Assembly: GCA_021848765.1 (NCBI GenBank)
Contig: JAJZTU010000001.1
Span: 1-55,762 of the forward strand
Direction: 5' to 3'
Length of the DNA: 55,762 nt
DNA from: Bacillota bacterium
GTDB lineage: Bacteria > Bacillota > GCA-003054495 > Carboxydocellales > JAJZTU01
Shown here: positions 4,113 through 26,885 of the stretch, piece by piece
How positions within the stretch are numbered: the stretch's first letter is position 1
Layout of the letters: each line of letters begins with the position of its first letter
Notes under the pieces: model-generated
Databases searched by the model: none
Seen by the model: the letters and a program-made list of their open reading frames with translations, nothing else
What the model was told of the DNA's origin: nothing
Program-made: the position numbers and the translations under genes

Positions 4113-4306
4113 CCCACCACCTTTCTCTGTTCTGCCTGCCTCCTCATTGCTGCTACAATCAGCTTGTCCGCCATCAGGCTATAATACAGTGTTATTTTAT
4201 GGGTGGTCCCCCGCACCGCCGCAGATACCTCCATCCGCCGGCGGTAGCGCAGGAACCGTTTCTGCTCGCCCGGGGTCATATGGTCGAAATATGCATCGTG
4301 AATCAT
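4109..4306 (-). CDS. Hypothetical protein
   Basis: 65-aa ORF translationally coupled on both sides by 4-nt overlaps. Confidence 0.5.
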   Translation of the reverse strand: MIHDAYFDHMTPGEQKRFLRYRRRMEVSAAVRGTTHKITLYYSLMADKLIVAAMRRQAEQRKVVG

Positions 4307-8826: not shown

Positions 8827-10978
8827 TGGCCTTCGCCTCCGCTCTCCCCAGGTCCCAAACCTTCCACCCAGGTATTACTTCAGTTCCGATAACTCCAGCC
8901 AGGATGATATTGTCAAGCTTCCCGTCCAGTTTGTTTAAGCCGTCAATAACCTTCCTGAAGTTAGTAGCGTCCAGATTTTCGATGTTATCAATGGCAAGGA
9001 TCTTAACTTTGGGGTTTGCCCGGTCGATTATTGTAGTCATTAGGGCAATTAATAGGAGCATCTGTTGGCCGGTAGAAAGTGCATCGAAGTTATGCTCATC
9101 ACCATGGCCATTCTTCCAGCCGAACTGGAATATTTCTTTACCGGTTTCCGATTCGGCGCGAAAGAAGAATTCCCGGTCAACGCCCATCAGACTGAGGTTC
9201 GCCTGCACATCCTGTCTAATTGGTTCAAGAATCTCCTTAACCAGCTCTCCCTGGACGCCTTTAGGTCCAAGCGCTTCAGCCAGGTATTTAGCAGCATCTG
9301 CATAGTAGCCGGACTTCTTGCTGTCAATCATGGAGGACCGCAGGTTGGATAGGGTAATCTTGGCCCTTTCCTGCTCCTCTATTTTGACCTTGAGGGTTTT
9401 GATTTGTTCCCTTAAACCGTTTACCCTGATCTGCAGCATATCAACAGGCGCTATGGCTTCCACGGGTTCCTGCTGCAGTTTGAGCAGTTCGTCTTGGTAT
9501 AACTTAAGTTTGTCATCACGCTGAGTTTTGGCATTAGCCATAGCAGTTTTTTGCTGCTCAAGTTGATTAATTTGCCTCCGGGTTTGGTCGTTTTTAAGAG
9601 ATTGTTCGGTCATGCTGGCATGGATGGTTTTAATTTTGTTTCGGAGTCCAGTAACTCGCGGGGCAAGCGTTACGTCCAATTCTTCGCTCATTACTTTGTA
9701 ATAATCTCTGAGTTCGGTCAGTTTAGTGTTGGCGCTGTCTTTCTCACTATTGATATAGTTCATTACCTTAGTGAAGTCTTTTTCGCATCCTATCTTCTTG
9801 CCCGGCAACATATCGCTCAGCAAGCACAGCCCGCCTTGGGTATTAATGGTTTCCGCAATCTTTTCCAAAGCTTTAACGTTGGCCTTTATATCAGCCATTT
9901 GCTGGTATAAATCCTCGCGGCACCTGGTTAATTCGCGCTGCCGATTCTCGGTGACAACTATCTGGCTTTCTATCTGCTGAATGGCATCCTTTGAATCAAC
10001 CTCAGTAATCTGCTTTTGCAAGGCCTTAATCTGCTCATCTATCTCAGTGGAATTATCCGGGATAACTTGATTTTTAAGGGCTTCGATGGTTTTCTGAAGA
10101 CCATCTATTTTAGCCAGCCGCTGCTCAACTAGACGCTTCTTTTCTGTATCCTTGGAAATCTGCTTCTCGACCTCAATCAACTGCTGCTGGAGGAATTCAA
10201 GCTCTGTTTTATTGCTGGAGATATTCCGGTCTGTTTCCTCCAGCTGGTTTTTCAGTTCAGATATCTTTCGGACAGCACCCTGGGCATCTTTCTTCTCACT
10301 CTTCCAGTGGCTCTCCTGAGCCTTGGCCCATTCGAGCATAGACTGAAGCCCCTCCTGCAACCCCAGACTTTCCGGCCATTCTCTCATGGCCTTTTGAATC
10401 AGTTCCGCGGCAACTGCATACTGATCAGGATTGTTTACCTCCAGGTCCATGGTCAGTAGTGATTCTCGGAGGTGCTTCTCTACCTTTTCCCGGTCCCAGG
10501 AGGAGGATTTGACCGGGGACAGTCCGTAGATGAATTCCCTGCGTTTGGAATCTGACAGTTTAAGGAACTCCTGAAAGTCCAGCATTACCGGGAAATCTCC
10601 CATTTCAGCAAGCACTCGGGCTTTCTTGGCCGTGGGGTTCTTCTCCCCTCTGCTCGGGGATACAGTGAGGTCCTGAGCCACAGAGACCTTCATGCTGCCG
10701 TCCTTATCGGTGCTTTCCTTCCTGATGAATGACCTGGTGAAGTGGAAGCCATCTGTCCTTAAGCCAACTGTCATCGTGCCGGCCTGATTAGAGCTGAGCT
10801 TGAAGGTTTCGCTTTCCAATTTGCCTTGGCCGGGGACATAACCCGAAAGGGCTATTCCCAGTGCCTGCAGGCGAGTGGTTTTACCGACACCATTGGGGCC
10901 AAGGATGATATCCTTGCCAGTGAGTTGCTGATTTTCATTCACACCCTTGATGTTCTGCATGATAACCTCACGAATCAT
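8813..10978 (-). CDS. SMC/Rad50/SbcC-like coiled-coil ATPase
   Basis: 721 aa. Walker A is GPNGVGKT, followed by a ~450-aa coiled coil, an ALSTGQQ signature and an ILAIDNIENLD Walker B-like motif. Confidence 0.8.
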   Translation of the reverse strand: MIREVIMQNIKGVNENQQLTGKDIILGPNGVGKTTRLQALGIALSGYVPGQGKLESETFKLSSNQAGTMTVGLRTDGFHFTRSFIRKESTDKDGSMKVSVAQDLTVSPSRGEKNPTAKKARVLAEMGDFPVMLDFQEFLKLSDSKRREFIYGLSPVKSSSWDREKVEKHLRESLLTMDLEVNNPDQYAVAAELIQKAMREWPESLGLQEGLQSMLEWAKAQESHWKSEKKDAQGAVRKISELKNQLEETDRNISSNKTELEFLQQQLIEVEKQISKDTEKKRLVEQRLAKIDGLQKTIEALKNQVIPDNSTEIDEQIKALQKQITEVDSKDAIQQIESQIVVTENRQRELTRCREDLYQQMADIKANVKALEKIAETINTQGGLCLLSDMLPGKKIGCEKDFTKVMNYINSEKDSANTKLTELRDYYKVMSEELDVTLAPRVTGLRNKIKTIHASMTEQSLKNDQTRRQINQLEQQKTAMANAKTQRDDKLKLYQDELLKLQQEPVEAIAPVDMLQIRVNGLREQIKTLKVKIEEQERAKITLSNLRSSMIDSKKSGYYADAAKYLAEALGPKGVQGELVKEILEPIRQDVQANLSLMGVDREFFFRAESETGKEIFQFGWKNGHGDEHNFDALSTGQQMLLLIALMTTIIDRANPKVKILAIDNIENLDATNFRKVIDGLNKLDGKLDNIILAGVIGTEVIPGWKVWDLGRAEAKANEVA

Positions 10979-11910
10979 AAAACCTCACCGTCCCCTCCGA
11001 AATTCATCTGACCCTGGGGCGCGAAAGTTCCGGCCTCGGTCGTTGGTTCGTTTTCATCATCTTCGACTACCGTTGCAGTGGTTTCGATGATCTCTGCCTC
11101 CTGACCGTTGTAGTTTACGGTTTCGCCTTTTACGGCCTGTTCGGCTATTGAGCCAAGTTCCTCTTTGCTGAACTTATGGGTGTAACCAACAACCGGAACT
11201 ACTGCAATTCGGTTCCCATCTGCACCTTGCGGAATGACGGTGACAGTAGCCAGGGCCGGGTGTTTTCTTAGGGCGTTTCGCTCACAAATCGTCTGAGCCT
11301 TGCGCTCTGCAAAGAGCTTGTTTTGGATATAGGTGTCCATTGCTTTGAGAAACTCCGGGTGACCAACATCGACCCAGATGCCCAACTCATTCTCCAGAGA
11401 GAAAAACATACCGGTTTGCAGGTCTTTCTCCGAGAGCATCGGGCGCATACAGGCCCGGCCCATCATTTTATCTCTCTGAATTTTTTTATACAGGTCCTGA
11501 ATAAAGTACATCCCGATATCATAGAGCAGTGTTGAACTGGTGATTACCAGGTTTCCGATAGGAGTTAAGCCTACTGCAATTTTTTTAACCCAGACCTTTG
11601 AAATAGACCCTGATGCCCTGTCGATTATTGGGTACGGGTTTGACACCACATTGCCATCAGGGAGTTGCAGGGTACTGGGGGTAATTACAGAAACGCCGGC
11701 TATTTTGTTCAGTTCATTATATCCATCAGCCGTTACCCGGCACTTCCCCTGAACCACATACAGTTGGCTTTTCCTTTCTTCCAACCGGACATTTGCTTTG
11801 ACGGCCTGAATCTCACCAAAGGGTGTTTTCTTGACAAACACTTCACTATCACCAAGCTGGACAACCTTATTGGGTTGGGTTTTTGTTACTTCACTATTTG
11901 GTAGGGCCAT
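10975..11910 (-). CDS. Hypothetical protein (positional candidate recombination partner of the SMC-like ATPase)
   Basis: 311-aa ORF that overlaps the ATPase gene by 4 nt and has an acidic C-terminal tail. I recognised no family motif. Confidence 0.6.
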   Translation of the reverse strand: MALPNSEVTKTQPNKVVQLGDSEVFVKKTPFGEIQAVKANVRLEERKSQLYVVQGKCRVTADGYNELNKIAGVSVITPSTLQLPDGNVVSNPYPIIDRASGSISKVWVKKIAVGLTPIGNLVITSSTLLYDIGMYFIQDLYKKIQRDKMMGRACMRPMLSEKDLQTGMFFSLENELGIWVDVGHPEFLKAMDTYIQNKLFAERKAQTICERNALRKHPALATVTVIPQGADGNRIAVVPVVGYTHKFSKEELGSIAEQAVKGETVNYNGQEAEIIETTATVVEDDENEPTTEAGTFAPQGQMNFGGDGEVL

Positions 11911-13867: not shown

Positions 13868-14119
13868 CTAGCTAGCCTGGGACTTTGGGTCTTGATGACT
13901 TTTGTCAGCACTGTCAATAAAAAAAATATCATCAAATCCCACTTTGAGCGCCTCGCAAATATCCTTGGCTACTTTTGGGCCTGGGTTTCTTTCGCCATTA
14001 GCTATTTGGTTAGCATACGGCTCGGATATGCCAATAGCTCTTCCAAAACCTCTTTGCGAATAACCGTTTTTTATTAGCAGTTCCTGAAATCTCGGAACAT
14101 CTTTGAGGCGAATTTTCAT
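13868..14119 (-). CDS. Cro-like XRE-family HTH regulator (first early gene)
   Basis: ATG at 14119 follows RBS GAGGTG. The HTH is YSQRGFGRAIGISEPYANQIANGER. It is transcribed divergently from the repressor gene. Confidence 0.8.
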   Translation of the reverse strand: MKIRLKDVPRFQELLIKNGYSQRGFGRAIGISEPYANQIANGERNPGPKVAKDICEALKVGFDDIFFIDSADKSHQDPKSQAS

Positions 14120-14162
14120 CTCTAAACACCTCGCTTTCTTTTGTAATCTGACTACTGTAATC

Positions 14163-14191
14163 ATATTAGCATGTTTATCTGACTTTTGCAA
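14163..14191 (-). promoter_or_regulatory. Early (lytic) promoter: TTGCAA-N17-TAATAT
   Basis: On the minus strand the -35 is TTGCAA (14186-14191) and the -10 is TAATAT (14163-14168), with 17-nt spacing. It lies about 40 nt upstream of the cro-like ATG. Confidence 0.6.
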
Positions 14192-14214
14192 GCGCTTTTT
14201 TAGCAAAATAATAT
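14186..14214 (+). promoter_or_regulatory. Repressor promoter: TTGCAA-N17-TAATAT, sharing its -35 hexamer with the early promoter
   Basis: On the plus strand the -35 is TTGCAA (14186-14191) and the -10 is TAATAT (14209-14214), with 17-nt spacing. It lies about 45 nt upstream of the ATG at 14261. Confidence 0.6.
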
Positions 14215-14260
14215 CTATTTTTTTATCTCTCGGCTATAATGGTTTTAGGGGTGATTACAA

Positions 14261-14659
14261 ATGCAAGCCAGAGAATTTGGCGAATTCCTTCGTGCCCTAC
14301 GAAAAGAAAAGGGATTGACTATACGGCAAATTGAAACATACACAGGTGTATCTAATTCATATCTATCGCTTGTGGAGAATGGCAAGCGGGGTATCCCTTC
14401 GCCAGATATCCTAAAACAGCTTGCCCCTGCCCTAAAAGTAACCTATGAATTTTTAATGGAAAAAGCAGGATATATAGAACAAGAAGACCCGAAACCACCA
14501 ACGACCATGGACCCCAAAGACTTGGAGGGCCTCATCAGGATGCGATTCGCTAACTCAAAAGTACCAAGGAGAATAAAGGAACACCAACTGCAGTCAATAA
14601 TCAACTCCATCAAATCATTGGAGGAAATGGAAAAAGAAGAGTTTGGAGATGAGGATTAA
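14261..14659 (+). CDS. ImmR/CI-like XRE-family repressor
   Basis: 132 aa with the HTH LTIRQIETYTGVSNSYLSLVENGKR. It is followed on the same strand by the ImmA-type protease and the integrase. Confidence 0.8.
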   Translation: MQAREFGEFLRALRKEKGLTIRQIETYTGVSNSYLSLVENGKRGIPSPDILKQLAPALKVTYEFLMEKAGYIEQEDPKPPTTMDPKDLEGLIRMRFANSKVPRRIKEHQLQSIINSIKSLEEMEKEEFGDED

Positions 14660-14663
14660 AAAA

Positions 14664-14690
14664 CTACCTACCCGAAAGGGCGGTAGTTTT
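14664..14690 (+). terminator. Intrinsic terminator/attenuator between the repressor and immA
   Basis: Hairpin CTACC-ta-CCC-GAAA-GGG-c-GGTAG followed by TTTT. Confidence 0.55.
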
Positions 14691-14739
14691 CGACATTTAA
14701 AAGGTTTTTTCGACATCATTCGTGAAGGAGTGACCCAAT

Positions 14740-15402
14740 GTGACAAGCAAAGCGGAGATTCAGAGCAGGGTTTTTCTTCAGGCTAGAAATATAACCAAGT
14801 ACCCCTTGGACTTAGAGGAAGTAGTTAAAACCTTACAAATGTCGAAACATGTCAAAATTATCTACGATTACACTCTTGATGATGAGATTGATGCATATCT
14901 TTATGAGTCAAAAAGACGGCTTTATATTGTCGTCAATGGCCACCGTCCACCCGAACGACAGCGATTTACTATTGCGCACGAAATAGGGCACCTTTATATT
15001 GGACACGAGCCGGTACGCATAAATGGGTGGGACATGCATGAGGATTACCAGGAAGATGAAGCAAATGATTTTGCTGCTGGGCTTCTTATGCCAGCCTCTA
15101 GGGTATACACTTTAGCCGAACATCACCGTAATGTGTTGCAACTCCTGGAGGTTGTAAAAAAATACTTTGATGTATCCCTGGCAGCAGCAGCAAAGCGCAT
15201 CACTAACCTGGATATTTTTCGAGGCGCAATCTTATTAAAGGACAGGGCTGGGCAAAATACATACTTCAATTACCGCACTTCAGATTTTTATGATGATAAT
15301 GAATATCGGTTTTATCATGAGAAAAAATTGCCCGGGAATAAACTGTTGCATGTACTGGTAGCAGAAACCTACAGACATGTAGTCAGGTGGGAGATAGGGT
15401 AG
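14740..15402 (+). CDS. immA: ImmA/IrrE-family zinc metallopeptidase (anti-repressor protease)
   Basis: 220 aa with the HExxH motif in FTIAHEIGHLYIGHE and a downstream E (EDEANDFAAGLLMP). It is adjacent to the XRE repressor. Confidence 0.85.
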   Translation: MTSKAEIQSRVFLQARNITKYPLDLEEVVKTLQMSKHVKIIYDYTLDDEIDAYLYESKRRLYIVVNGHRPPERQRFTIAHEIGHLYIGHEPVRINGWDMHEDYQEDEANDFAAGLLMPASRVYTLAEHHRNVLQLLEVVKKYFDVSLAAAAKRITNLDIFRGAILLKDRAGQNTYFNYRTSDFYDDNEYRFYHEKKLPGNKLLHVLVAETYRHVVRWEIG

Positions 15403-15627
15403 AAACCGGAGGTTCAATTAGACGCAAAAAAAATTAACGAAGAGGTCGGATCCCCTTTACCAGTTTTTTTAGCTCCAAGTGGACTTAAACCCTTTATATC
15501 AAAGGAGTTGCTAGAAGGATCCCTCACCCCTGTTGAATATCAAGATGGAAAGCGAATTACAAAAGGTTTTTTCGCCCACTGTGGCGAATTCTTTTTCATA
15601 TTTTGGACAAGCATAATTAAGAGGTGA
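15403..15627 (+). pseudogene. Start-less gene remnant, possibly a P63C-domain fragment
   Basis: 74 open codons with no start codon. The segment ..LPVFLAPSGLKPFISKELLEGSLTPVEYQDGKRITKGF.. resembles the LP.FL...NLKPFIS core I recall from P63C-domain phage proteins. Confidence 0.3.
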
Positions 15628-15631
15628 TAGC

Positions 15632-17086
15632 ATGAGAGGATTTGGCTACATTCGGGTTTCAACTGAAGAACAGGCGCAAGATGACCGCTATAGCATTTCA
15701 ACCCAAACTAATAAAATTAAATCTCACTTCAAAAAAAACGGCATCGTGCTGGTTGATACATTCATAGATGACGTAAGCGGGAAGGGTACTGCAAAGAGGG
15801 ATGAGTTTCAGGAGATGCTCAAAAGGTTGGATGAGGTGGATTTAGTCGCAGTTACCGAAGTTGACCGCTATGCAAGAAACATGCTTGATAGCCTTAATAC
15901 CGTTGACCAAATCATAAAACGAGGGAAATCTTTTATTGCCATAGAGGATAACCTGGAAATAACAGCGACCTCATCAGAGAATGATGAACTAAATTTTCAT
16001 GTTAAATCTATGTTTGCCCACTATTTCAGCAAACAACTTGCCAGGAAAGTAAAAAATAATATGCTTGAAAAAGCCTCCAAGGGGGGTTATAACACCAAGG
16101 CCCCTTTGGGTTATAACCTGGCAGAGAAAAAACTGGTTGTGAATGAAAATGAAGCAACAATAGTTAAAAAGATATTCGACTATTACCTTCAGAATATGGG
16201 CATACGAGCCATAGCCGAGGAGTTAAACCGATTAGGCTATAGGTCAAAACCTACCAAGAATTTTCCCGCCGGAGCCCCGTTTCAAGCTTTCCCTGTTCGT
16301 AAAATATTAAAAAACCGGGTGTACATCGGCATAACCTCTTGGGGAGGGATAATAAAAAAAGATACTCATGAGCCAATTATTTCCGAAGAACTATTCAATG
16401 AGGTCCAAAAACGAATAGAAAGAAAAGGTGAAATGGGTGGTCGTGCGCAATCCAGCGATTTTCTTCTTTCTGGAATTCTAAAATGTGGCCATTGTGGGCA
16501 ATCTATGGTTGGTAATAAAAACAAGGGCAGGTACTCCAAAACAAAGGATCGGGCGCCTATTTACCGCCGGTATATCTGCAACAACTACCAGAAAAATGGT
16601 GGGTGCAGCTTTGTTTGGGGTCATTGCGCCGATGTAGAAAAAACAGTATTAGATTATATTGAATCGGAAGTACCAAGAGAGGAGGCCTCTAAGTATTTGA
16701 ATCAAACCCCTATGGCCTTCGACCCGGAAAAACTAAAAAAAGAGCGCGACAGCATTAGACACGCTCTTGAAGAAGAAATGCCTACCAGATATGACAGACA
16801 AATTCAGTTATATGAAAAAGGCAGAATCGATGATGAAAAATTAGACATAGCTTTTAGTCGGCTAAAAAAAGAAGAGGAGGATCTGAAGAAAAAACTCCAG
16901 GAGTTGGAGAGTAAATTAACTCTTACCCCTGAAGCATTAGAGGAAATGCGCAAAGCTCGTTTAGCTACTTTTTATTCGGTTTTCGATAAAGACGACATTG
17001 CCCAACGAAAGGCATGGGTTCAAAACAATATCAAGGAAATCCGCTATTTTGATATAGATACTATTGAGGTTATATCGTATATTTAG
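15632..17086 (+). CDS. int: Large serine recombinase (integrase)
   Basis: 484 aa. It has an N-terminal resolvase domain (GYIRVSTEEQ), a recombinase domain, a Zn ribbon (CGHCG...CNNY..GGC) and a C-terminal coiled coil. Confidence 0.92.
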   Translation: MRGFGYIRVSTEEQAQDDRYSISTQTNKIKSHFKKNGIVLVDTFIDDVSGKGTAKRDEFQEMLKRLDEVDLVAVTEVDRYARNMLDSLNTVDQIIKRGKSFIAIEDNLEITATSSENDELNFHVKSMFAHYFSKQLARKVKNNMLEKASKGGYNTKAPLGYNLAEKKLVVNENEATIVKKIFDYYLQNMGIRAIAEELNRLGYRSKPTKNFPAGAPFQAFPVRKILKNRVYIGITSWGGIIKKDTHEPIISEELFNEVQKRIERKGEMGGRAQSSDFLLSGILKCGHCGQSMVGNKNKGRYSKTKDRAPIYRRYICNNYQKNGGCSFVWGHCADVEKTVLDYIESEVPREEASKYLNQTPMAFDPEKLKKERDSIRHALEEEMPTRYDRQIQLYEKGRIDDEKLDIAFSRLKKEEEDLKKKLQELESKLTLTPEALEEMRKARLATFYSVFDKDDIAQRKAWVQNNIKEIRYFDIDTIEVISYI

Positions 17087-17089
17087 GCA

Positions 17090-17135
17090 TTTCTATTGTG
17101 ATATCTTTGGTAGCCCTATGATTCCACAATAGAAA
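17090..17135. repeat. Perfect 11-bp inverted repeat with a 24-nt spacer (int terminator and/or attP candidate)
   Basis: TTTCTATTGTG (17090-17100) and CACAATAGAAA (17125-17135), located 4 nt after the int stop. Confidence 0.7.
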
Positions 17136-17424
17136 CCCATTTTCTAATCACTCCTCACGGGCAATTATAGCGCAATTATTGGCTGTGTGCAATGTTTAGG
17201 AGTTGATTTCGGAGGCGGCCCACTGGTCGTCTTTTAGCATTTCCTGAGTCCTTTTTGATCTGCTTCGCTCCGGCCCCCCATCATCTCCCCTAACCCTTCT
17301 TAATTTTGGTTGAATTTGTTGATAAATTTGCACATGGACAAATTAAATGAGTCGTTTCTAGTTTCTGGAACGTATATATAAACGAATGGATAAGGAGAAG
17401 CCAACGAATGAGCAAGCGAACGGA

Positions 17425-17634
17425 TTAAGGCAGTTTATCAATCCACTTTTCTACCCTAGCTTTCTTCTGTTCTAAATCCTGGATAACCGGACTTAATTCC
17501 TTGGCAATCAAGTTAACTGCCGTTATGGTAGCGAGCAATATCACCAAATAGCCTACCAGTTTCTTGTCAAGCACCAGGCAAATTACATAGATCAGAACAG
17601 CCAAAGTTGCAATAGCCATAAGCTCAGCTAGCAT
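17425..17634 (-). CDS. Small two-TM membrane protein
   Basis: 69 aa with two hydrophobic helices and a charged C-terminal tail. It is the last gene of the FtsK block. Confidence 0.6.
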   Translation of the reverse strand: MLAELMAIATLAVLIYVICLVLDKKLVGYLVILLATITAVNLIAKELSPVIQDLEQKKARVEKWIDKLP

Positions 17635-17635
17635 T

Positions 17636-17869
17636 TTATTTCAACCCCGCAATCCCGGCCACGGCCCCAATTGCTTTAGCGACTTCACTAACAACCAATC
17701 CGATACAGACAAAGATAGTCACAATCCTGATAAAGCCCGCCGCCTTCCCGTTCTTGGCCGCCTGCGCCAGTGTTTCCAGTAGCCAACCTACTACCGCAAT
17801 CAGCATGAGTTGAACCATCACCGCAGCTGGGCCGCCAAAGCCAAAAGTGTGCTTAGCTAATTCTGCCAT
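17636..17869 (-). CDS. Small two-TM membrane protein
   Basis: 77 aa with two hydrophobic helices. It overlaps the end of the Replic_Relax gene. Confidence 0.6.
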   Translation of the reverse strand: MAELAKHTFGFGGPAAVMVQLMLIAVVGWLLETLAQAAKNGKAAGFIRIVTIFVCIGLVVSEVAKAIGAVAGIAGLK

Positions 17870-18513
17870 GACATGGCCTCCTCTCGAATGTCCCTTAACA
17901 ACCGCACGTCAAAGTTAAGACCTTCCGTATTCTCCTCCGCTATGTGCTGGAGTATTTTTTCCTTCCTGGGCACTGATGTTGTCACCGTTAGGATGGTCGG
18001 AAACTTATCCGTCAATTCTACCCACCACCTATCCTCATAACCACCCTGCCGGAACAACTGACAATATTTTGTCACCTTGTCAAATTTGTTCCCAGGACTC
18101 CGGTCCATTTCAATAAAATAGAATCGAAATTGCCCTGTAACCGTATTTTTTACAGCCACAAAAGCGTCGCAGCGTAAAACGCCATAATTCTGCTCATACA
18201 AAAAGCAATGCACCTTTTCCCAAGATCTTTTTGTTTTCTCCAACCACACCCTAACCCAATTAATGCCCTCCAAATGGGCGCTCATTGCGTTTTTATCGCC
18301 CAGTGAATATAATAAATATCCTTCTTCTGCCCTCCAGCGGTTTACAGAGCCTTTTAGGGCCAGTTTTCTGAGCCTTTCCTGGGACTTGCGCTGTGAGGAT
18401 TGAATGTCAAAAAAAAGCATCAACCTAACCTGGTGCGCATCAGTCACTCCCCATTCTTCAATCATCTTTAGAATAGCCTTATCTCGGGAATAACCTTTTT
18501 GTCGTTTGTTCAA
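17857..18513 (-). CDS. Replication-relaxation (Replic_Relax, PF13814-like) protein
   Basis: 218 aa. The N-terminal winged-HTH pattern (SRDKAILKMIEEWGVTDAHQVRLMLF...QERLRKLALKGSVNRW...YSLG) is typical of the family. It overlaps the FtsK-like gene. Confidence 0.6.
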   Translation of the reverse strand: MNKRQKGYSRDKAILKMIEEWGVTDAHQVRLMLFFDIQSSQRKSQERLRKLALKGSVNRWRAEEGYLLYSLGDKNAMSAHLEGINWVRVWLEKTKRSWEKVHCFLYEQNYGVLRCDAFVAVKNTVTGQFRFYFIEMDRSPGNKFDKVTKYCQLFRQGGYEDRWWVELTDKFPTILTVTTSVPRKEKILQHIAEENTEGLNFDVRLLRDIREEAMSWQN

Positions 18514-19594
18514 ATTCCCACCCCCTTTCCGGGAAGGCTATTTTCTTCCGTTGTTCTTTAGATAGGCACATGGTCTGCACTTCTTTGAACTCTCCACCAA
18601 ACCGGAAGATAGCTCTACCCTTAACCGCCGGTAACCAGGCTGCTTTAGAGCATTCTTCCCCCAGGATGACCCGGGAGCTAATTTCACTGCCCACCTTAAA
18701 GCACATCCTAGCCTCAAATAAATCCCTACACTGTCCTGGGATAACTGATACATCCGGCCTTTGGGTAGCGGCTACCAGGTGAATCCCCACCGCCCGGGCT
18801 AATTGGGCAAGCTTTGTCAGCATTTCCATGCTTTCTTTACTGATCTGCGCCACCTCATCGAAGATAGCTACAATGTACGGCAGAGTAGAATCATACTCCT
18901 GGATCTTGGTCACAGAGACATCAGCTTGCTCCAACAGGGCTATTCTGCGGCCGTATTCCTTAAGCAACGCCTTCAGCAGTCCCTGCGCTTCTTCATCGTC
19001 CCTGGCAAGCAGGATATATCTTCCTAGATAGCGGAAGTCTAACCTTTTTGGGTCACTAATACATACCCAGGCTCGGGGAATTAGGGCATTAGCCAAGCAG
19101 TGCAGGAACATGGTTTTCCCCCACCCCGTCTGACCTCCTACCAACAGGTGAGGACTATCGCACAGGTCAAACACTTCTAACCCCTTCTGGCTGCACCCAA
19201 TAGGGATAGGTAGTTCCATGTGCTCATATTTACCAGAATCCCAGGCATACTCTACATAATTAGGCAGTTCGCTAGTTTGAATCTCCATGTGCAGTTGTCC
19301 GTTCCATGTCATATTGACAAAGCCCTTTACTGCATCGGAGAAAAAGTTCTCTTTTGCTTTGCACTGCTTAAAGCTTATCCCGGGTGGTAGGTTAAACACT
19401 AAATACCAACCATAAGGAGTCTTTTGCTTGCTAACCATTACTGGCCTTCGTTTGTCCTTTGTCTCAAATCGCAAGTTGTCAAAGGTGTCCAGGATTAACC
19501 CTGGAATCTCATTTCCTGGCCGGTGCCGCCAGGTGTGCCGGATTAAACTGGTCAACTCTACAAGCACGCCTTCTTCTTTAGGCAATTTATTCAC
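18479..19594 (-). CDS. FtsK/SpoIIIE-family DNA translocase ATPase (TcpA/TraB-like)
   Basis: Walker A is GGQTGWGKT, Walker B is YIVAIFDEVAQ, and HLVAATQRPD is present. There is no N-terminal TM segment. The probable real start is TTG at 19585, 8 nt after GGAGG. Confidence 0.85.
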   Translation of the reverse strand: MNKLPKEEGVLVELTSLIRHTWRHRPGNEIPGLILDTFDNLRFETKDKRRPVMVSKQKTPYGWYLVFNLPPGISFKQCKAKENFFSDAVKGFVNMTWNGQLHMEIQTSELPNYVEYAWDSGKYEHMELPIPIGCSQKGLEVFDLCDSPHLLVGGQTGWGKTMFLHCLANALIPRAWVCISDPKRLDFRYLGRYILLARDDEEAQGLLKALLKEYGRRIALLEQADVSVTKIQEYDSTLPYIVAIFDEVAQISKESMEMLTKLAQLARAVGIHLVAATQRPDVSVIPGQCRDLFEARMCFKVGSEISSRVILGEECSKAAWLPAVKGRAIFRFGGEFKEVQTMCLSKEQRKKIAFPERGWEFEQTTKRLFPR

Positions 19595-19657
19595 CTCCCA
19601 TTCGTCCTTGTAGCGTATATTTATTCCTGGGTGGTGATGATTATGCCTTTCCCGGAT

Positions 19658-19692
19658 AAAAAATAAAACCCTGCGGTTAATCTTCCACAGGG
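19658..19692 (-). terminator. Intrinsic terminator overlapping the 3' end of the XRE gene
   Basis: On the minus strand, CCCTGTG-10 nt-CGCAGGG followed by TTTTATTTTTT. Confidence 0.6.
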
Positions 19693-19889
19693 TCTATTAG
19701 GTCCTCCATATGCAATTCGGGGAAATCGGCTTTCAGTTTCTGGTATATAGCCCACAGCGTTTCAAGAGACGGCTGCTTTTTGTGATGCTCCCATTGATTG
19801 ATCTGCCCTGGCCTCACCCCCAGGTACTCAGCAAACTCAGTCTGGTCCATCTCTTTACGGTGCCGCCAGTGCTTTAGCCGGTTTCGCAT
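19677..19889 (-). CDS. XRE-family HTH regulator
   Basis: ATG at 19889 follows GAGGTGGTGG. The HTH is MDQTEFAEYLGVRPGQINQWEH. Confidence 0.7.
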   Translation of the reverse strand: MRNRLKHWRHRKEMDQTEFAEYLGVRPGQINQWEHHKKQPSLETLWAIYQKLKADFPELHMEDLIDPVED

Positions 19890-20068
19890 GTCCACCACCT
19901 CACAGAGATATTCGCCCCAGCTTGTCCCAATTCCTGCCAGGAAATAGAAAAACCCCGGCATTTAGTCAGGGCTATCTTCTTCAATTTCCCTCCTCCTATT
20001 GACATATGCTATCTAGCCACCTTCCGCGAACGGTCGTTTTTCACCCCCGAATGGCCGAATATTCCCTG

Positions 20069-20097
20069 TTGACACCATGGCACCATTATGCTATACT
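20069..20097 (+). promoter_or_regulatory. Near-consensus sigma-A promoter TTGACA-N17-TATACT
   Basis: TTGACA at 20069-20074 and TATACT at 20092-20097, about 70 nt upstream of the ATG at 20168. Confidence 0.7.
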
Positions 20098-20167
20098 GTA
20101 ATCACAGCAAAGGAAATGGCAGCGCAAATCGGTCAGCCCCACCGACGGGGCGGAAGGAGAATGCAAA

Positions 20168-20680
20168 ATGAAAATCAAAGTATCCGGCTACAGCGCCAAT
20201 GAAGGAACCCGCGAGTTTGAGATTCTGGAGCGCGAAGAACTCCAGACCAAGATTGACAACCTTTCGAACACGGAAGTTTTTCGTCGCACTTTCGAAGAGG
20301 CTAGGGCATATAGACACACCGGCACCGCCTACACCTACATAGATGCCCGGAGCGGTGAAATCAAGACCTGCTGGCTTGGATCGAACACCACGAACCACCC
20401 CTGGGATAGTTTCTATGAAATCTGGCTATGTTCCCTGAAAACCGGAAATGGCGAGCAGAATTTTGGGGTTGAGGACCTGCTCGACACGTCGAGCGCAGAG
20501 TACGAAAAGTATCTGGAGTCGGACCTGAACGCAGAGGACTTCATTAGCACTAAATATGGTGCCGATGACCTTGCTGAACGAATTGAAAACGCCATATCGT
20601 GGCAAGCAGTGGAGTTCTACTTCGATGAGGATGATATAGAACGCCAAATCGAAGAGTTATATTCCGACCCAACGGAGTAG
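20168..20680 (+). CDS. Acidic hypothetical protein (170 aa)
   Basis: RBS is GGAAGGAG. The sequence is strongly D/E-rich, especially at the C-terminus (FDEDDIERQIEELYSDPTE). It is the first gene of the GC-rich operon. Confidence 0.7.
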   Translation: MKIKVSGYSANEGTREFEILEREELQTKIDNLSNTEVFRRTFEEARAYRHTGTAYTYIDARSGEIKTCWLGSNTTNHPWDSFYEIWLCSLKTGNGEQNFGVEDLLDTSSAEYEKYLESDLNAEDFISTKYGADDLAERIENAISWQAVEFYFDEDDIERQIEELYSDPTE

Positions 20681-20738
20681 TGGTTTCAAGGCCAGCCGGG
20701 AGCCTCATCCCGGCACCACAAAGAAAGGAGCTAACACC

Positions 20739-20882
20739 ATGACCATCAACTACACCCGCGTCACCCTCCGCATCCCGGAGGATCTGTATGAAAAACTGCG
20801 CATACTGGCGTTTGAGAGTCGGAAGTCGCAGAATCAGATTATAGTGGAGGCCCTGGCGGCCTACCTAAAAAAGGAGAGTTGA
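20739..20882 (+). CDS. Ribbon-helix-helix (CopG-like) protein, 47 aa
   Basis: The pattern RVTLRIPEDLYEKLRILAFESRKSQNQIIVEALAAYL is a classic RHH. RBS is AAAGGAG. Confidence 0.65.
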   Translation: MTINYTRVTLRIPEDLYEKLRILAFESRKSQNQIIVEALAAYLKKES

Positions 20883-20970
20883 TATATGATAATGTATTTA
20901 GGCACCATGGACTATGAGTAATCCCCAAGGGCCAGCCGGGGCCTAATCCGGCGCAAGGAGGATGAATAGT

Positions 20971-21129
20971 ATGATACATATTAAGGTGTTCTTCGCAAAT
21001 GGCGATTCCCTAGTTACCGGTTTCAATGGTAGTATGTTGCAGGCTTGCAACTACTACGTGGGCCATGTTTTTCAGCTGGGGATATCGGAATCCAGCAAAT
21101 CGAGAGCTGTCAGAATAGAGCAACTCTAG
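20971..21129 (+). CDS. Hypothetical small protein (52 aa)
   Basis: ATG follows the conserved AAGGAGGATGAATA cassette. It is below the ORF-track cutoff. Confidence 0.4.
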   Translation: MIHIKVFFANGDSLVTGFNGSMLQACNYYVGHVFQLGISESSKSRAVRIEQL

Positions 21130-21197
21130 CCCCTCCCCAGGGGCCATAATAAAGGAGGATGAATAACTATGAAAATTTATCAAACAGCAAGAAGTTG

Positions 21198-21225
21198 TTT
21201 ACATGCGCCACATATGTGGTATACT
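21198..21225 (+). promoter_or_regulatory. Candidate internal promoter TTTACA-N16-TGgTATACT (extended -10)
   Basis: TTTACA at 21198-21203, TG at 21217-21218 and TATACT at 21220-21225. Confidence 0.45.
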
Positions 21226-21240
21226 AGTATCAAGAGATGA

Positions 21241-21331
21241 GCCTCAAGTGAGGCGCACTCAAATCACAGCCCCCCGGAAGCTGAGATTCCGGCCCTGGCG
21301 AGTGCCAGGTGTCCCGCCCGAGTGGAGCGGG
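21241..21331 (+). promoter_or_regulatory. Structured 5' leader made of four consecutive hairpins, the last reaching the RBS
   Basis: The hairpins are GCCTC-aagt-GAGGC (21241-54), CCGGAA-6nt-TTCCGG (21275-92), CCTGGC-gagt-GCCAGG (21294-309) and CCCGC-9nt-GCGGG (21313-31). The last overlaps GGGAGGAAGGAG. Confidence 0.35.
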
Positions 21332-21345
21332 AGGAAGGAGTCAAA

Positions 21346-21639
21346 ATGAAAAAGACTACTACTCAACTGTCCGAGCAAGTGCTCAAAGCCGCACAAGAGT
21401 ACCTCAATCGCCGTGACCGCATCAGTCACCCCTCCGGTAGCTTTGATAAAGCCGGGCGGTGGTATCCCAGCGAGTCCGAAACTTGCGACTGCTGCGGCGC
21501 AATCTGCAGTCCCTCCCGAGCATTTCCGTACAGTTATATGGTGCACTGCCGGACAGCCGGCCATGTCGCCAAACTATACGGCGTGGATGTCAAAGAGCTG
21601 CTGAAGGCAGCCCGGCAACTCGAGAAAGCCACAGCCTAA
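21346..21639 (+). CDS. Cys-rich hypothetical protein (97 aa)
   Basis: ATG at 21346 follows GGAGGAAGGAG. The sequence includes ..CDCCGAICS..HC. Confidence 0.6.
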   Translation: MKKTTTQLSEQVLKAAQEYLNRRDRISHPSGSFDKAGRWYPSESETCDCCGAICSPSRAFPYSYMVHCRTAGHVAKLYGVDVKELLKAARQLEKATA

Positions 21640-22064
21640 TTCCCCAATTGGACACCGCATAACGAGATACATTCCTGCCCCCATGGGTGTGCAAGGGCAG
21701 GACGCTACAAGCCAGGCAACGGATCGATTGCCGACCTGGTGCGTTGGAGACATCGATCGACGGCGAAAGGACGGCACCGCATCTGCTAGCGACCGTCTCC
21801 GTTTGGCACAGTAGCAGGCGCCAATAAGCCCGGTAGAGTGGGTCTGTAGCCGGGTGGTGCGAGTTGACTGACCATGATAGCAGCGGGAGTCCCGGCATAG
21901 GCGACGATTAACGCGCCGGAGAGGATGCCAGTGCGCCGGGACGGTCTCAGTCAGGTAGTGGGGACCGAGACAATATATTACACTGCTGGCAGTCAGACGA
22001 TACTGCCCAGTGGCGAGTGCCGCTGTGCCAGCCGGAAGTACCGGCGGCAAGAAAGGAGTCTCCC
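21640..22064 (+). ncRNA. Candidate large structured non-coding element (RNA or ssDNA); function unknown
   Basis: This ~425-nt GC-rich gap has no credible ORF. It carries dense stem-loops (21674-701, 21711-40, 21746-800, 21828-55, 21981-22012, 22019-48). The strand is assumed from the flanking genes. Confidence 0.3.
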
Positions 22065-22916
22065 ATGACAACCCAAAAAGCAACTATCGCCTACTTGCTG
22101 AGCGAGGAGGGCCGCAAGAAGTCCCTGCTCCAGGGCGGGAACGGCAAGGGGGAACAGGTTCTGGATGCCGAAATCACTCCAGAGCTGCTGAAGTTAGCCT
22201 TTGTGGACAGGGACGGCAGCGTTAAGCTGCGAGTTGGCAGTGACAGCGGCTACAGCCCCCTGAACTGCTTGGACTACAGGCTTGAAATTGATACTTATAG
22301 TGGCAAGCCACACATGAAGGAAGTTGGGGAGTTTGTCAGATTCAATGCCCCCCAGACCGCTGAGGCCCTCATCGCCTTTGAGACCGCCCGCCAAGCGAAA
22401 CTGGAGGCCCGGAAAGCCGAACTCCAGCCGGAATATGACCGACTCATGGCAGAGTACGAGTCCCGCATGGCAGAGAAAAAGGCCCGCGAGGAAGAAGAGG
22501 CAGCCCGCGACAGAGCTGCACGGGAAGCCCAGGAAGCTGAGCGCAAGGCCGAACGCGAGCGGCTGGAGGCCGAGAAACTCCAGTGGATTCAGGAGCACGG
22601 CAGCGAGTGCCTCCGGGATGCCGTGGACCTTGGCTACGACTGCCAACGGAAGTATGTCGCCCAGCGGACAGACATGGAGTTTCCCGGCTACATCGTCGAC
22701 TTCGATGATACCGCCGAGTGGAAGTCCCGCTCCTGCCCCAGTCGGGAGGCCCTGGCAGAGGTCAAGGACCTCATCGCCAAGGGGTATGACGCGAAGGTGG
22801 TCTGGCTGACAGTTACTCCGGCGCAATTACCGGAGGAAGAATGGCCATTCCGACCCTGCGAGGCAATTGTGATTCGCAACTACCTTGGTAAGTACGACCT
22901 GGTCAAGGAGGTATGA
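22065..22916 (+). CDS. Hypothetical protein with a central charged coiled coil (283 aa)
   Basis: ATG at 22065 follows AAAGGAG. The central region is an E/R/A-rich helix (EKKAREEEEAARDRAAREAQEAERKAERERLEAEK). Confidence 0.7.
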   Translation: MTTQKATIAYLLSEEGRKKSLLQGGNGKGEQVLDAEITPELLKLAFVDRDGSVKLRVGSDSGYSPLNCLDYRLEIDTYSGKPHMKEVGEFVRFNAPQTAEALIAFETARQAKLEARKAELQPEYDRLMAEYESRMAEKKAREEEEAARDRAAREAQEAERKAERERLEAEKLQWIQEHGSECLRDAVDLGYDCQRKYVAQRTDMEFPGYIVDFDDTAEWKSRSCPSREALAEVKDLIAKGYDAKVVWLTVTPAQLPEEEWPFRPCEAIVIRNYLGKYDLVKEV

Positions 22917-22917
22917 C

Positions 22918-23040
22918 ATGGACGGGTACTGCTGGCAGTGTGGCTTGCCCCTGGTTAACGACGAGGCAACCGGCGAATCCGAAGATGACTGTTATTGCGC
23001 CGAATGTCTAAAAGAGATTATGAACGAACAGCATAACTAG
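22918..23040 (+). CDS. Zn-ribbon mini-protein (40 aa)
   Basis: The sequence is MDGYCWQCG...CYCAEC. It starts 1 nt after the upstream stop. Confidence 0.45.
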   Translation: MDGYCWQCGLPLVNDEATGESEDDCYCAECLKEIMNEQHN

Positions 23041-23079
23041 TCCCCGCCAAGTGGCCGGGGTTGCGGCAAACAAGTGTGA

Positions 23080-23132
23080 GCCGCCTGGGAATCATTGCAG
23101 ACAATTAGCCTGCGTGTCTTAGGCGGCTTTTT
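23080..23132 (+). terminator. Terminator of the GC-rich operon
   Basis: GCCGCCT (23080-86) pairs with AGGCGGC (23121-27) and is followed by TTTTT. The loop is long. Confidence 0.5.
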
Positions 23133-23268
23133 AATTTTGAGAGGAGTTGAAACATGAGAATTCAAATTCCGGCATTTATTCGCATGGGGTATAGTGGAGG
23201 TTAAGATTGATTATAAACCTGACCCAAACAATACCAAACAATAGGATTCTGAAGGTTGGTGATTATCT

Positions 23269-23592
23269 TTGACTGTCGAATGGTTTGAAATAGAAACTGC
23301 TAAAAGAAATATTCTGTCGATCAACTTTGCTAAATCTGCCGTGGGTTTGAGTAAATTTTTAGCTGAAGACTTGAAAGAAAAAAACGCAACACATATCCAA
23401 ATCGGATATGACGATCAGAGAGAAAAACTAATCGTTAAACCGAGCAAAAACGGACTAAAGCTACTAGGAAGCCGCAAAGCCGGAACAGTAACTCTCACTA
23501 AAGTATTAACCGCCTGGCTCGAAGAGAAGAATGTAAAAGGTAAATATGAGTTGGTTTATGACGAAGCGCGAGGCTGGTATGAGTCAAAATGA
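23269..23592 (+). CDS. Hypothetical protein (107 aa)
   Basis: TTG start follows GAAGGTTGGTG. It lies in the AT-rich block. Confidence 0.5.
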   Translation: MTVEWFEIETAKRNILSINFAKSAVGLSKFLAEDLKEKNATHIQIGYDDQREKLIVKPSKNGLKLLGSRKAGTVTLTKVLTAWLEEKNVKGKYELVYDEARGWYESK

Positions 23593-23832
23593 GTGGTTTG
23601 GTTCGCCTCTCTCAAAGGCTGTGCTTCTTGCGGCAAGGAGTTTAAGCCAAACAGTAACGTACAAATCTACTGCAGTACGACATGTGCAGAGCGAGAAAAA
23701 AAGAGGCAAAAGCGCCGGAGGCGCAGAGAAAAAAGTTTATGTATATATTGTGCCAATCCATTGGATATGAATGCGGCCTATTGTCAAAAATGCTCAGATT
23801 ACTTTAGAGACGCAAAGAGGAAAGGGGATTGA
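23593..23832 (+). CDS. Basic Zn-ribbon protein (79 aa)
   Basis: GTG start. It has CASCG...CSTTC, then KKRQKRRRRREK, then CIYC...CQKC. Confidence 0.5.
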   Translation: MVWFASLKGCASCGKEFKPNSNVQIYCSTTCAEREKKRQKRRRRREKSLCIYCANPLDMNAAYCQKCSDYFRDAKRKGD

Positions 23833-23835
23833 TAA

Positions 23836-24060
23836 ATGGGTTTACTGACCCCAACCCAACAGTTGGTTGACTACATTTTGGGTTTGTTGTGCGGGTTATA
23901 CATTATTACACGTAAAAATTATCGTGACCTTTTACCAGATGTTGTCCTTTTGTTCAGCGACAATAAAGCGGTTATTGCTTTGCTCGTAACCTATATTGGA
24001 GGCTATTTTATGATCCCCTGGATTTTTTATCACACATTCCGGGGACGCAAGGAGGATTAA
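23836..24060 (+). CDS. Small membrane protein (74 aa)
   Basis: Two hydrophobic segments. RBS is AGGAAAGGGG. Confidence 0.55.
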   Translation: MGLLTPTQQLVDYILGLLCGLYIITRKNYRDLLPDVVLLFSDNKAVIALLVTYIGGYFMIPWIFYHTFRGRKED

Positions 24061-24062
24061 CT

Positions 24063-24485
24063 ATGTCAGACTACACGAGACCAACTATCCACATCCGCTC
24101 AAACCTGGACGAACAAATCAAGTCCCGTGGCTCCCGCAGTACCGTCATCTCCCGCGACCTGGAGCGGCTGTACACCCTTTACCGCCGGGCACTAGCGGAA
24201 GTCAAGCTCACTATTGACGAGGCCTGCCTCATTGTTGACGCGCTCAACGGCAGCCTGATGGATGCCAACACAGCCCGGCTACTGTGGGCCAATATTGCCG
24301 ATGCCGTCAGCATGGACGGTTTGGACGAAAAGTGGTCAGTCGATGGTCCGGCATTGGTTGAGAAGCTGCGCGGGCTGAGCGATATTCAGGCCTTGGCCGT
24401 GGTTGATGCGGCAGAACGGTTTTGGCAAGGGCCATATCGGGAAACGGATATATACGAAGCCGTCGAAGAGTGTTTTTTGGTTTAG
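24063..24485 (+). CDS. Hypothetical protein (140 aa)
   Basis: ATG follows AAGGAGG. It is followed directly by a terminator. Confidence 0.65.
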   Translation: MSDYTRPTIHIRSNLDEQIKSRGSRSTVISRDLERLYTLYRRALAEVKLTIDEACLIVDALNGSLMDANTARLLWANIADAVSMDGLDEKWSVDGPALVEKLRGLSDIQALAVVDAAERFWQGPYRETDIYEAVEECFLV

Positions 24486-26564: not shown

Positions 26565-26885
26565 CTACATGCCAGCGGGCTTATCCATATCCTTCGCCTT
26601 CAACGGTGCCTTAATATAGCTATACAACCCGCTCGCCATCAAACCGGTCACAATCCCCGGAGCAATTGCCTTCGTCCAATCAGTGCCGGTTACAAAAGCA
26701 TTAAGCAAACTCAGCACAATTGCCACAGATACAGACAGTGCAGGGGCATATACCTTGTTAAGCCCCTTCTTCTTGGCCAGTTCTACGGCGGCCAGGGTAG
26801 CTGCAGTAATGATGGTCTCCGGGAGGTAGGGCGTTCCCCAAAGGCGCATAAACAGGTCTTGCAGGATTGATACGGTAGTTTCCAT
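26565..26885 (-). CDS. Putative holin
   Basis: 106 aa with three hydrophobic helices and a charged C-terminus. It is adjacent to the endolysin. Confidence 0.6.
   Translation of the reverse strand: METTVSILQDLFMRLWGTPYLPETIITAATLAAVELAKKKGLNKVYAPALSVSVAIVLSLLNAFVTGTDWTKAIAPGIVTGLMASGLYSYIKAPLKAKDMDKPAGM

Follow-up and report, generated by a model that had tools for sequence, protein, structure and literature searches.

The locus considered here raises the question of why genes resembling the DNA-transfer block of a mobilizable element should lie in the genome of a tailed phage. The window, by which we mean the whole 55,762-nt stretch analyzed (positions 1 to 55,762 of the forward strand of contig JAJZTU010000001.1, GenBank assembly GCA_021848765.1, from a Bacillota bacterium of the Carboxydocellales), holds a siphovirus genome in which a minus-strand block encodes an XRE-family helix-turn-helix (HTH) regulator, an FtsK/SpoIIIE-family ATPase, a Replic_Relax-type protein and two small membrane proteins. 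An original prediction, made from the sequence alone, took this block for the hallmark of an integrative mobilizable element (IME) or of an actinomycete integrative and conjugative element (AICE). The comparisons described below give it a more ordinary identity. Very probably, the block is the form that Clostridia phages have of a conserved accessory cassette with its own transcription. This cassette is normal in phages of Bacilli and Clostridia and is met on plasmids, in islands and in chromosomes as well, and we are highly confident that the block did not arrive in the window phage as an IME or AICE. On this evidence the window phage is the carrier of a standard accessory cassette rather than an unusual phage-IME hybrid. 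The block is made up as follows.

19677-19961, minus strand: XRE-family HTH regulator, an open reading frame (ORF) of 94 amino acids (aa) (HTH_3, E 5.9e-9; matches to phrog_2104 and repressor-type PHROGs).
19666-19695, minus strand: terminator-like hairpin where the HTH gene ends, its 11-bp stem including 6 G-C pairs and a T-run coming after it (consensus scan).
18479-19594, minus strand: FtsK/SpoIIIE-family (TcpA-like) ATPase, 371 aa (PF01580, 50.6 bits, cut-off 24; phrog_1358, 1.7e-56).
17857-18513, minus strand: Replic_Relax protein (PF13814, MOBC-type), 218 aa (PF13814, 37.2 bits, cut-off 25.3).
17636-17869, minus strand: orf77, 77 aa, a protein of two transmembrane (TM) segments with two hydrophobic stretches.
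17425-17634, minus strand: orf69, 69 aa, a two-TM protein whose C-terminal helix is charged.

As a description of the genes, the original prediction was accurate. It had placed five minus-strand ORFs at these coordinates, namely an XRE HTH gene with its own terminator, an FtsK/SpoIIIE ATPase bearing the motifs GQTGWGKT (Walker A), IVAIFDE (Walker B) and ATQRPD and no TM anchor, an overlapping winged-helix gene of the Replic_Relax type, and two double-TM proteins of 69-77 aa. Each of these was recovered, and the profile searches it proposed for PF01580 and PF13814 both gave scores over the cut-off.

The prediction went astray in taking the gene set to be atypical of tailed phages and hence unusual. 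A tblastn search with the ATPase retrieved 391 deposited phage records, 275 of which are Bacillus phages. In seven out of seven phages of several genera (WBeta-like Hubeivirus, Geobacillus PT9.1, Pagevirus Palmer, Camtrevirus phIS3501, Svunavirus Bacillus phage 1, Pemunavirus PM1 and BhaS-171), the FtsK-like gene is immediately followed, and often overlapped, by a gene whose product matches PF13814 above the gathering threshold. The window Replic_Relax itself had no tblastn match among phages because it is too divergent, and a Bacillus member was taken as the query instead. This one sequence found 105 phage records, and among the matches listed nearly all abut an annotated FtsK gene. The 105 include gamma, Cherry, Fah, WBeta, phBC6A51, Andromeda-like B. 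pumilus phages and Page-like podophages. The prediction had also named, as a finding that would count against it, homologous pairs being routine in the replication modules of related, non-transmissible phages; of this, the comparisons bear out the routine occurrence in related phages.

The layout is shared along with the genes. In WBeta the order runs from holin and PlyG through an XRE HTH gene, a small membrane protein, FtsK (wp22), an overlapping Replic_Relax gene (wp23), a membrane protein and a 481-aa integrase to repressor/cro, and the DnaD and DnaC loaders are located elsewhere in the genome. The order in the window is holin/endolysin, cassette, integrase, which places the cassette between lysis and lysogeny genes, and it follows WBeta in the succession of HTH, FtsK, overlapping Replic_Relax, membrane protein, integrase and repressor/cro as well as in having separate replication genes. 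Two Clostridia phage contigs (L009 and L013; L numbers designate the loci collected here) carry tail genes, an amidase endolysin, an optional HTH gene, the ATPase, Replic_Relax with the same 35-nt overlap as in the window, and two small ORFs. In L009 these are followed by a convergent serine integrase and then repressor/cro. A serine integrase stands at the matching relative position in L009 and L031, and the order lysis, cassette, integrase/repressor is found in L028 as well. In temperate siphoviruses the cassette lies with the lysis genes on one side and the integrase on the other, and the comparison of synteny that was proposed for deciding whether 17.4-20.0 kb is phage-specific cargo gives a negative answer, the same position being occupied in WBeta, L009 and L013. 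The Bacillus phage proteins are <30% identical to those of the window, which come from an uncultured Clostridia phage, and the window cassette is a divergent Clostridia member of a cassette family that had already been described.

Eighteen loci, collected by scanning genomes, from IMG/VR and by looking up contigs, were scored with hidden Markov models (HMMs) built from the collected sequences. Because the loci were found via Replic_Relax or orf77, and some of the HMMs include sequences that they score, the informative figures are the adjacency counts. The ATPase adjoins Replic_Relax in all 18 loci, and an orf77-family protein comes after Replic_Relax in 16 of them. The orf77 family has 49 members, all unannotated and none with a Pfam domain; orf77 is the conserved third core gene and a candidate membrane anchor. 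The gene lies 1 nt from orf69, the fourth gene, which is the variable one. Members of the orf69 family occupy this place in the window, in L009 (E 1e-10) and in L015, another two-TM family does so in 4 loci, and in 5/18 loci the fourth gene encodes a membrane-anchored Peptidase_M23, two of these loci being IMG/VR viral contigs. In the Bacillus lineage a different family of membrane proteins, unlike the orf77 and orf69 families, accompanies the ATPase-nuclease pair. Homology of orf69 to the N-terminal anchors of the M23 proteins was considered and dropped, the likeness being one of topology and a short motif with no significant BLAST match. One locus, L015 (4461-7028), has the deviant order ATPase, orf77-like, orf69-like, Replic_Relax.

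Outside prophages the cassette occurs in three kinds of context, namely a Bacillus plasmid, small integrative islands and a lone chromosomal copy. The plasmid is pBCT77 of B. toyonensis (L025, 5509-7895), which MOB-suite types as 'mobilizable, MOBC' and whose replicon is typed separately. Mobility calls of this kind may be unreliable, since the call apparently rests on an FtsK-linked Replic_Relax gene that phages carry. Three islands (L020, L027 and L030) combine an integrase and a primase with no visible virion genes. The lone copy is in the cultured strain Desulfitobacterium dehalogenans ATCC 51507 (CP003348; L026, 7685-10788) and consists of an HTH gene, a small ORF, an FtsK-like ATPase, Replic_Relax, an orf77-like gene and a membrane-anchored Peptidase_M23; it is surrounded by ordinary chromosomal genes, with no integrase or phage gene within 10 kb. 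These plasmid, island and lone chromosomal occurrences are new here, as are orf77 as the conserved third core gene and the cassettes that end in M23.

Several of the collected loci have features of their own. An IMG/VR contig (L029, 2266-3273) has a gene for a caspase-like Peptidase_C14 upstream of the cassette and resembles the 'FtsK-replication-relaxation-caspase operon' reported in Bacillus phage RBClin15 (PMC11526630). In the prophage on a 257-kb contig (L028, 6723-7118), prepilin-type (N_methyl) and DUF5658 proteins are encoded between the endolysin and the cassette. Firmicutes-type cassettes (Replic_Relax 45-47% identical) were also met in contigs binned into Archaeoglobus and Lentisphaeraceae metagenome-assembled genomes (L016, L017), which are most likely mis-binned contigs of mobile elements.

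A cassette of this kind has been described before. Pathria, Hardies, Serwer et al. (2012; PMC3357382) named a "DNA translocation operon" in Bacillus phage 0305phi8-36 (orf200-207), in which a relaxase linked to CloDF13 MobC by HHpred (4.4e-22) stands beside a coupling ATPase that lacks a TM domain and is accompanied by membrane proteins, with partial versions in SPO1 (gp27.3/27.4), GBSV1, Bacillus virus 1 and gamma/Cherry/Fah/WBeta (wp19-wp25). According to the same study, the operon neighbors integration genes in lysogenic phages, its deletion leaves laboratory growth of 0305phi8-36 unimpaired, and cell-to-cell DNA translocation without virions was proposed as a route of propagation (PMC3357382). 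The window cassette is alike in setting a MobC-like winged-helix nuclease beside a coupling-type ATPase and membrane protein(s), with integration genes near as in the lysogenic phages, whereas the ATPase of 0305phi8-36 and SPO1 is VirD4/TraG-like and that of the window FtsK-like. Genome papers and reviews have repeatedly noted the FtsK/SpoIIIE phage gene, with speculation about DNA translocation, injection or sporulation, and the ATPase gene of Fah belongs to the 'delayed' expression class in lytic infection. Thus, the suggestion in the original prediction that the element might spread both as a virion and by a conjugative route had already been published for the phage cassette in 2012. The idea is an old hypothesis for the whole cassette family, and the part of it that made this phage unusual does not hold.

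The HTH gene probably starts at ATG 19889 to give a protein of 70 aa, as suggested by the GAGGTGG ribosome-binding site before this codon and by a near-identical start in L015, where the upstream HTH gene is nearly identical to that of the window in DNA sequence. An HTH gene stands in the equivalent place in L013, in L026 and in WBeta (wp19). The hairpin lies ~70 nt upstream of the ATPase start, and a hairpin with a T-run is found 5' of the ATPase gene in 5/9 relatives examined (L013, L009, L016, L017 and L020). No sigma-70-like promoter was found between the terminator (19666-19695) and the ATPase gene.

The start of the ATPase is probably TTG 19585, judging from the comparison with L015. Its best sequence match in the Protein Data Bank (PDB) is the 'DNA translocase coupling protein' 6O1W/6O1X/6O1Z (8.7e-22), which we take to be TcpA of pCW3, with FtsK behind it at 9.5e-19. 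Identity to the TcpA of pJFP55F (pCW3-type) is 31.5% and is confined to the motor domain (residues 73-341). The NCBIfam TraB equivalog scored 52 bits on the protein against a cut-off of 800, and the FtsK equivalogs were likewise far under cut-off. Thus, of the TcpA/TraB-like translocase that had been predicted, the likeness to TcpA is borne out in the motor domain and the likeness to TraB is not.

The Replic_Relax gene shares 35 nt with the ATPase gene at one end and 13 nt with orf77 at the other, and a hydrophobicity scan of its product found no hydrophobic segment. In an AlphaFold2 model (pLDDT 92.4, pTM 0.88) the protein folds as an N-terminal winged helix followed by a C-terminal PD-(D/E)XK nuclease domain. 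Foldseek comparison of the model with the PDB gave weak matches only, the N-terminal part to winged-HTH regulators and the C-terminal part to PD-(D/E)XK nucleases, and comparison with a viral library (BFVD) gave strong matches to proteins of large Bacillus phages (TM scores 0.66-0.71); a profile search of the PDB returned no significant sequence match. Replic_Relax has been placed in the PD-(D/E)XK superfamily by a published assignment, with which the window nuclease agrees. Residues D116, E135 and K146 are invariant in 17 phage and plasmid members from Clostridia and Bacillus, and D137 is present in 15 of the 17; since the active-site residues are retained, the enzyme is probably active. Among 1.84 billion proteins the subfamily profile picked out 548 cluster representatives, nearly all of them 200-230 aa long, and the closer relatives of the window protein, at 39-74% identity, are all metagenomic. 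Comparison with PHROGs gave a weak match to phrog_2190, "replication initiation protein". Neither PADLOC nor NCBIfam yielded a model matching Replic_Relax, orf77 or orf69.

One possibility, which we favor tentatively and at somewhat less than an even chance, is that the cassette is a membrane-tethered module that nicks and pumps DNA. From the protein families, the synteny and overlap of the genes, the retained active site and the membrane partners we infer a mechanism of the following kind. The winged helix of Replic_Relax would bind a specific site on the element DNA, and the PD-(D/E)XK domain would nick or cut there, as CloDF13 MobC and pAD1 TraX do at the origin of transfer (oriT). The nuclease, which the gene overlap suggests is made in step with the ATPase, would form a complex with it and pass on the DNA, which a hexamer of the FtsK/TcpA-like ATPase would then pump. 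The small two-TM proteins may tether the ATPase at the membrane; some phage relatives have an N-terminal TM segment of their own in the ATPase, which may serve instead, and in some relatives the membrane-anchored M23 peptidoglycan hydrolase may assist. In this way phage DNA would cross a membrane or septum with no virion involved. As to where the DNA might go, a rough split of the probability makes a resident conjugation pore or a neighboring cell an unlikely destination when taken by itself and the forespore a slightly less likely one, with a smaller share left unassigned. The hosts found here presumably belong largely to endospore-forming lineages.

The precedent of the MOBC family, the coupling-protein-like ATPase, the conserved membrane partners, the M23 gene in 5/18 loci and the presence of a separate replicon are among the grounds for this tentative reading. 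Experimental hints in its favor are the unimpaired growth of 0305phi8-36 after deletion of the operon and the delayed-class expression of the ATPase gene in lytic infection by Fah. PF13814 is the MOBC relaxase family of CONJscan (Coluzzi et al. 2017, PMC5357655), and the members whose function has been studied, CloDF13 MobC and pAD1 TraX, are oriT nickases of matching layout. TraX has a winged helix, a restriction-enzyme-like active site and five direct repeats 70-120 bp from nic, and a covalent intermediate was not detected. Like the window cassette, these systems join an N-terminal winged helix and a restriction-endonuclease-like domain to an adjoining hexameric coupling ATPase (MobB in the case of CloDF13). 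However, in the cases compared their partner ATPases are VirD4-type and membrane-anchored, and they work with a helper type IV secretion system (T4SS) and a defined oriT. The likeness to the Tcp locus of pCW3 is in the ATPase motor domain. TcpA itself is 538 aa long with two N-terminal TM segments (residues 51-101), whereas the window ATPase has none, and the relaxase of pCW3 is TcpM, related to tyrosine recombinases, with the full Tcp apparatus (TcpB-H) alongside, in place of Replic_Relax. The TraB/clt/Spd systems of Streptomyces and the AICEs also combine an FtsK-like motor with small membrane proteins. In contrast to the window, TraB has a C-terminal winged helix that binds the 8-mer repeats of clt; TraB systems need no relaxase, whereas the nuclease of the cassette is invariably coupled; and their hosts are mycelial actinomycetes rather than Firmicutes. 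A precedent for one replicon with both a virion route and a conjugal route is the plasmid-phage pZL12, which is reported to form virions and to transfer conjugally via a tra gene (Zhong et al. 2010).

Several results weigh against a nick-and-pump function. The window ATPase has neither a TM segment, according to a hydrophobicity scan, nor a C-terminal DNA-recognition domain; there is no room for the latter, since the match to the motor domain runs to residue 342 of 371. The orf77 family showed no relation to TcpD or TcpE in hhalign comparisons, nor to Pfam. No oriT-like, iteron-like, clt-like or tandem repeats stood out above chance in 16900-20300, so that the oriT or clt-like 8-mers for which the original prediction had suggested a search were not found there; such a site may lie elsewhere or escape recognition. 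No T4SS gene was present among the window ORFs scanned, whose products are structural, lysis, replication and regulatory proteins of a phage and which did not include every small ORF. For all phage members of the cassette family, nicking, pumping and transfer are predicted activities. The forespore version is weaker for temperate phages because a prophage is inherited by the spore anyway, and occurrence in obligately lytic phages is awkward for conjugative mobilization. Finally, defense systems show the same pattern of an ATPase with a PD-(D/E)XK protein and a regulator, placed in the manner of a moron.

A bolder form of the nick-and-pump reading, which we consider doubtful, is that the cassette is a self-sufficient minimal apparatus for transfer of double-strand (or nicked) DNA in Firmicutes, analogous in function to Streptomyces TraB. 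Its parts would be the XRE regulator, the FtsK/TcpA-like pump, the MOBC-type nuclease, orf77 and, in fuller versions, the M23 wall hydrolase. If this were true, phages, plasmids and islands would all carry it, and phage genomes could reach neighbors or forespores without virions.

The likeness to defense systems is the starting point for an alternative mechanism, which we regard as unlikely and which nonetheless survives best among the rivals. The cassette may be a conflict module for superinfection exclusion, for anti-plasmid or anti-phage defense, or for degradation of host or competitor DNA, in which a HerA/FtsK-type hexamer activates a PD-(D/E)XK nuclease, or feeds it DNA, at the membrane as the point of entry of incoming DNA. 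ATPase-nuclease pairs of the HerA-DUF4297 type are known defense systems. A place like that of a moron, flanked by lysis and lysogeny genes, fits such a module, as do the XRE regulator and terminator that the cassette has to itself, the matches of the ATPase domain to PADLOC SspH and mad8 and weakly to HerA, the DUF87/HerA matches of some relatives' ATPases, and weak nuclease-fold matches to the defense nucleases HamA, Shedu and Can2. The lone Desulfitobacterium copy lies among host genes, copies in islands adjoin Mrr and Z1/HATPase defense genes, and the cassette is dispensable for growth of 0305phi8-36. However, PADLOC has no match for Replic_Relax or the membrane proteins, and the fixed position, conserved over many phage genera, is unlike that of patchy defense morons. 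Obligately lytic phages have the cassette too, Fah expresses it with delayed timing during lytic infection, members of the nuclease family with a known function are oriT relaxases, and a winged helix implies that a single site is recognized, not that DNA is attacked broadly. A conflict module would also leave the M23 wall hydrolase unexplained.

Less likely again is a role in auxiliary replication or maintenance, in which Replic_Relax would nick the phage origin so that the genome, when excised or episomal, replicates in a rolling-circle or plasmid-like mode, with the ATPase helping to segregate or resolve the copies. The nuclease is labeled a 'replication initiation protein' by PHROG and RefSeq, but such labels are annotation only; the Pfam name itself comes in part from a report on replication of plasmid pUA140. 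Bacillus plasmids carry the cassette, a phage-plasmid has it close to repA and parABS, and the delayed-early timing in Fah would be compatible. On the other hand, every genome examined has another dedicated replicon (a DnaD-like protein and DnaB in the window, DnaD and DnaC in WBeta, a Prim-Pol in L020, and that of pBCT77), one copy is alone in a chromosome, and 0305phi8-36 grows without the cassette. FtsK-type motors move duplex DNA without unwinding it, which also speaks against such a role. Neither the membrane proteins nor the M23 hydrolase would have a function in replication, and iterons or other repeats were not found in 16900-20300.

A link between the cassette and the integrase, analogous to that of FtsK and Xer, was considered as well and rejected, since Page-like and PM1-like phages, SPO1 and 0305phi8-36 carry the cassette without an adjacent integrase.

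As for the comparison with IMEs, streptococcal IMEs share with the window a compact set of coupling protein, relaxase and integrase, and their class 8 pairs a PF13814/MOBC relaxase with a serine integrase (PMC5357655). However, among 144 such elements MOBC is found solely with VirD4 and never with TcpA (Coluzzi et al. 2017, PMC5357655), so that the gene set is not the hallmark of an IME that it was taken to be, and the integrase of the window serves a complete phage genome. What stands of the resemblance to mobilization genes is the membership of PF13814 in the MOBC family and the presence of the cassette on islands and plasmids, and what falls is the idea of a foreign transfer block in a phage. 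That the window phage acquired an IME/AICE-type block as cargo and became a two-route hybrid is very improbable: although the domain families are those used to call mobilizable elements, the cassette is also in integrase-bearing non-phage islands and a plus-strand island of unassigned genes adjoins it, the reading is contradicted by the synteny shared with WBeta-like phages, Geobacillus phages and related Clostridia phage contigs, and is further opposed by a G+C content (0.45-0.47, against ~0.48 for the genome) that is not foreign, by the lack of a second serine integrase in the window (the sole match of the SerInt HMM is 15632-17086, and this one enzyme serves the whole phage), by the lack of flanking direct repeats in 17000-20300 at spacings of <=400 nt, a limit too short for repeats around the whole block, and by the fact that TcpA with MOBC is an undocumented IME combination, the ATPase is not TraB and clt-like repeats were not found in 16900-20300.

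The cassette is present in the anthrax diagnostic phage gamma and its parent WBeta, in >100 deposited phages, and on plasmids and genomic islands, and virion-free movement of phage DNA has been suspected since 2012. If the cassette does transfer DNA, assumptions about the host range and containment of Firmicutes phages would need revision, and so would calls of plasmids as "mobilizable (MOBC)" that rest on this gene alone. The conserved third membrane gene, the variants with an M23 wall hydrolase and the lone copy in a cultured Desulfitobacterium offer handles for experiments.

The remainder of the window is the genome that the original prediction described, with a serine integrase, ImmA, ImmR and packaging, head, tail and lysis modules. 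The genes that fix the setting of the cassette are these.

344-1702: DnaB, part of the window's own replicon.
1699-2649: DnaD-like initiator, part of the window's own replicon.
15632-17086, plus strand: large serine integrase (Resolvase, Recombinase and Zn_ribbon_recom domains), convergent with the cassette.
26565-26885: holin.
26897-28129: endolysin.

The full siphovirus-type gene complement includes the small and large terminase subunits, portal, protease, capsid, adaptor, major tail protein, tape measure, endolysin and holin. The early operon encodes the DnaD-like initiator, DnaB, UvrD, an SbcC/SMC-like ATPase and an SNF2-methylase fusion, and Pfam bears out ImmR and ImmA (Peptidase_M78) along with the integrase. 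The ends of the window do not overlap, and circularity is thus unconfirmed. When IMG/VR was scanned with the ATPase alone and with the integrase alone, no relatives came up.

Between the lysis genes and the cassette is a plus-strand island of ORFs (20168-24485; 170, 105, 299, 107 and 140 aa), in which the G+C content climbs to 55-59% (21-23 kb), compared with ~48% genome-wide. A coiled-coil stretch rich in E/A/R is present in the 299-aa protein. None of the ORFs matched Pfam or PHROGs, and the two tried against NCBIfam had no match either; the island is probably cargo of unassigned function. At 40-41%, the G+C content of the lysogeny module (14000-17000, with ImmR, ImmA and the serine integrase) is clearly under that of the rest of the genome, which suggests that this module has been exchanged.

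Within the early operon, on the minus strand at 8813-11910, a 721-aa SMC/SbcC-like ATPase (phrog_32642, 1e-248; PADLOC LmuB, 4e-10) is followed by a 311-aa partner (phrog_32428, 3e-120), and the two form a conserved phage pair. A single 793-aa protein (4303-6684, minus strand) fuses an SNF2-type helicase to an N6/N4 DNA methyltransferase domain. Near the terminase region are three minus-strand genes for HNH endonucleases (45376-45939, 46251-47225 and 49544-50065), of which the first and the last have their top PHROG families in common and may be paralogues.

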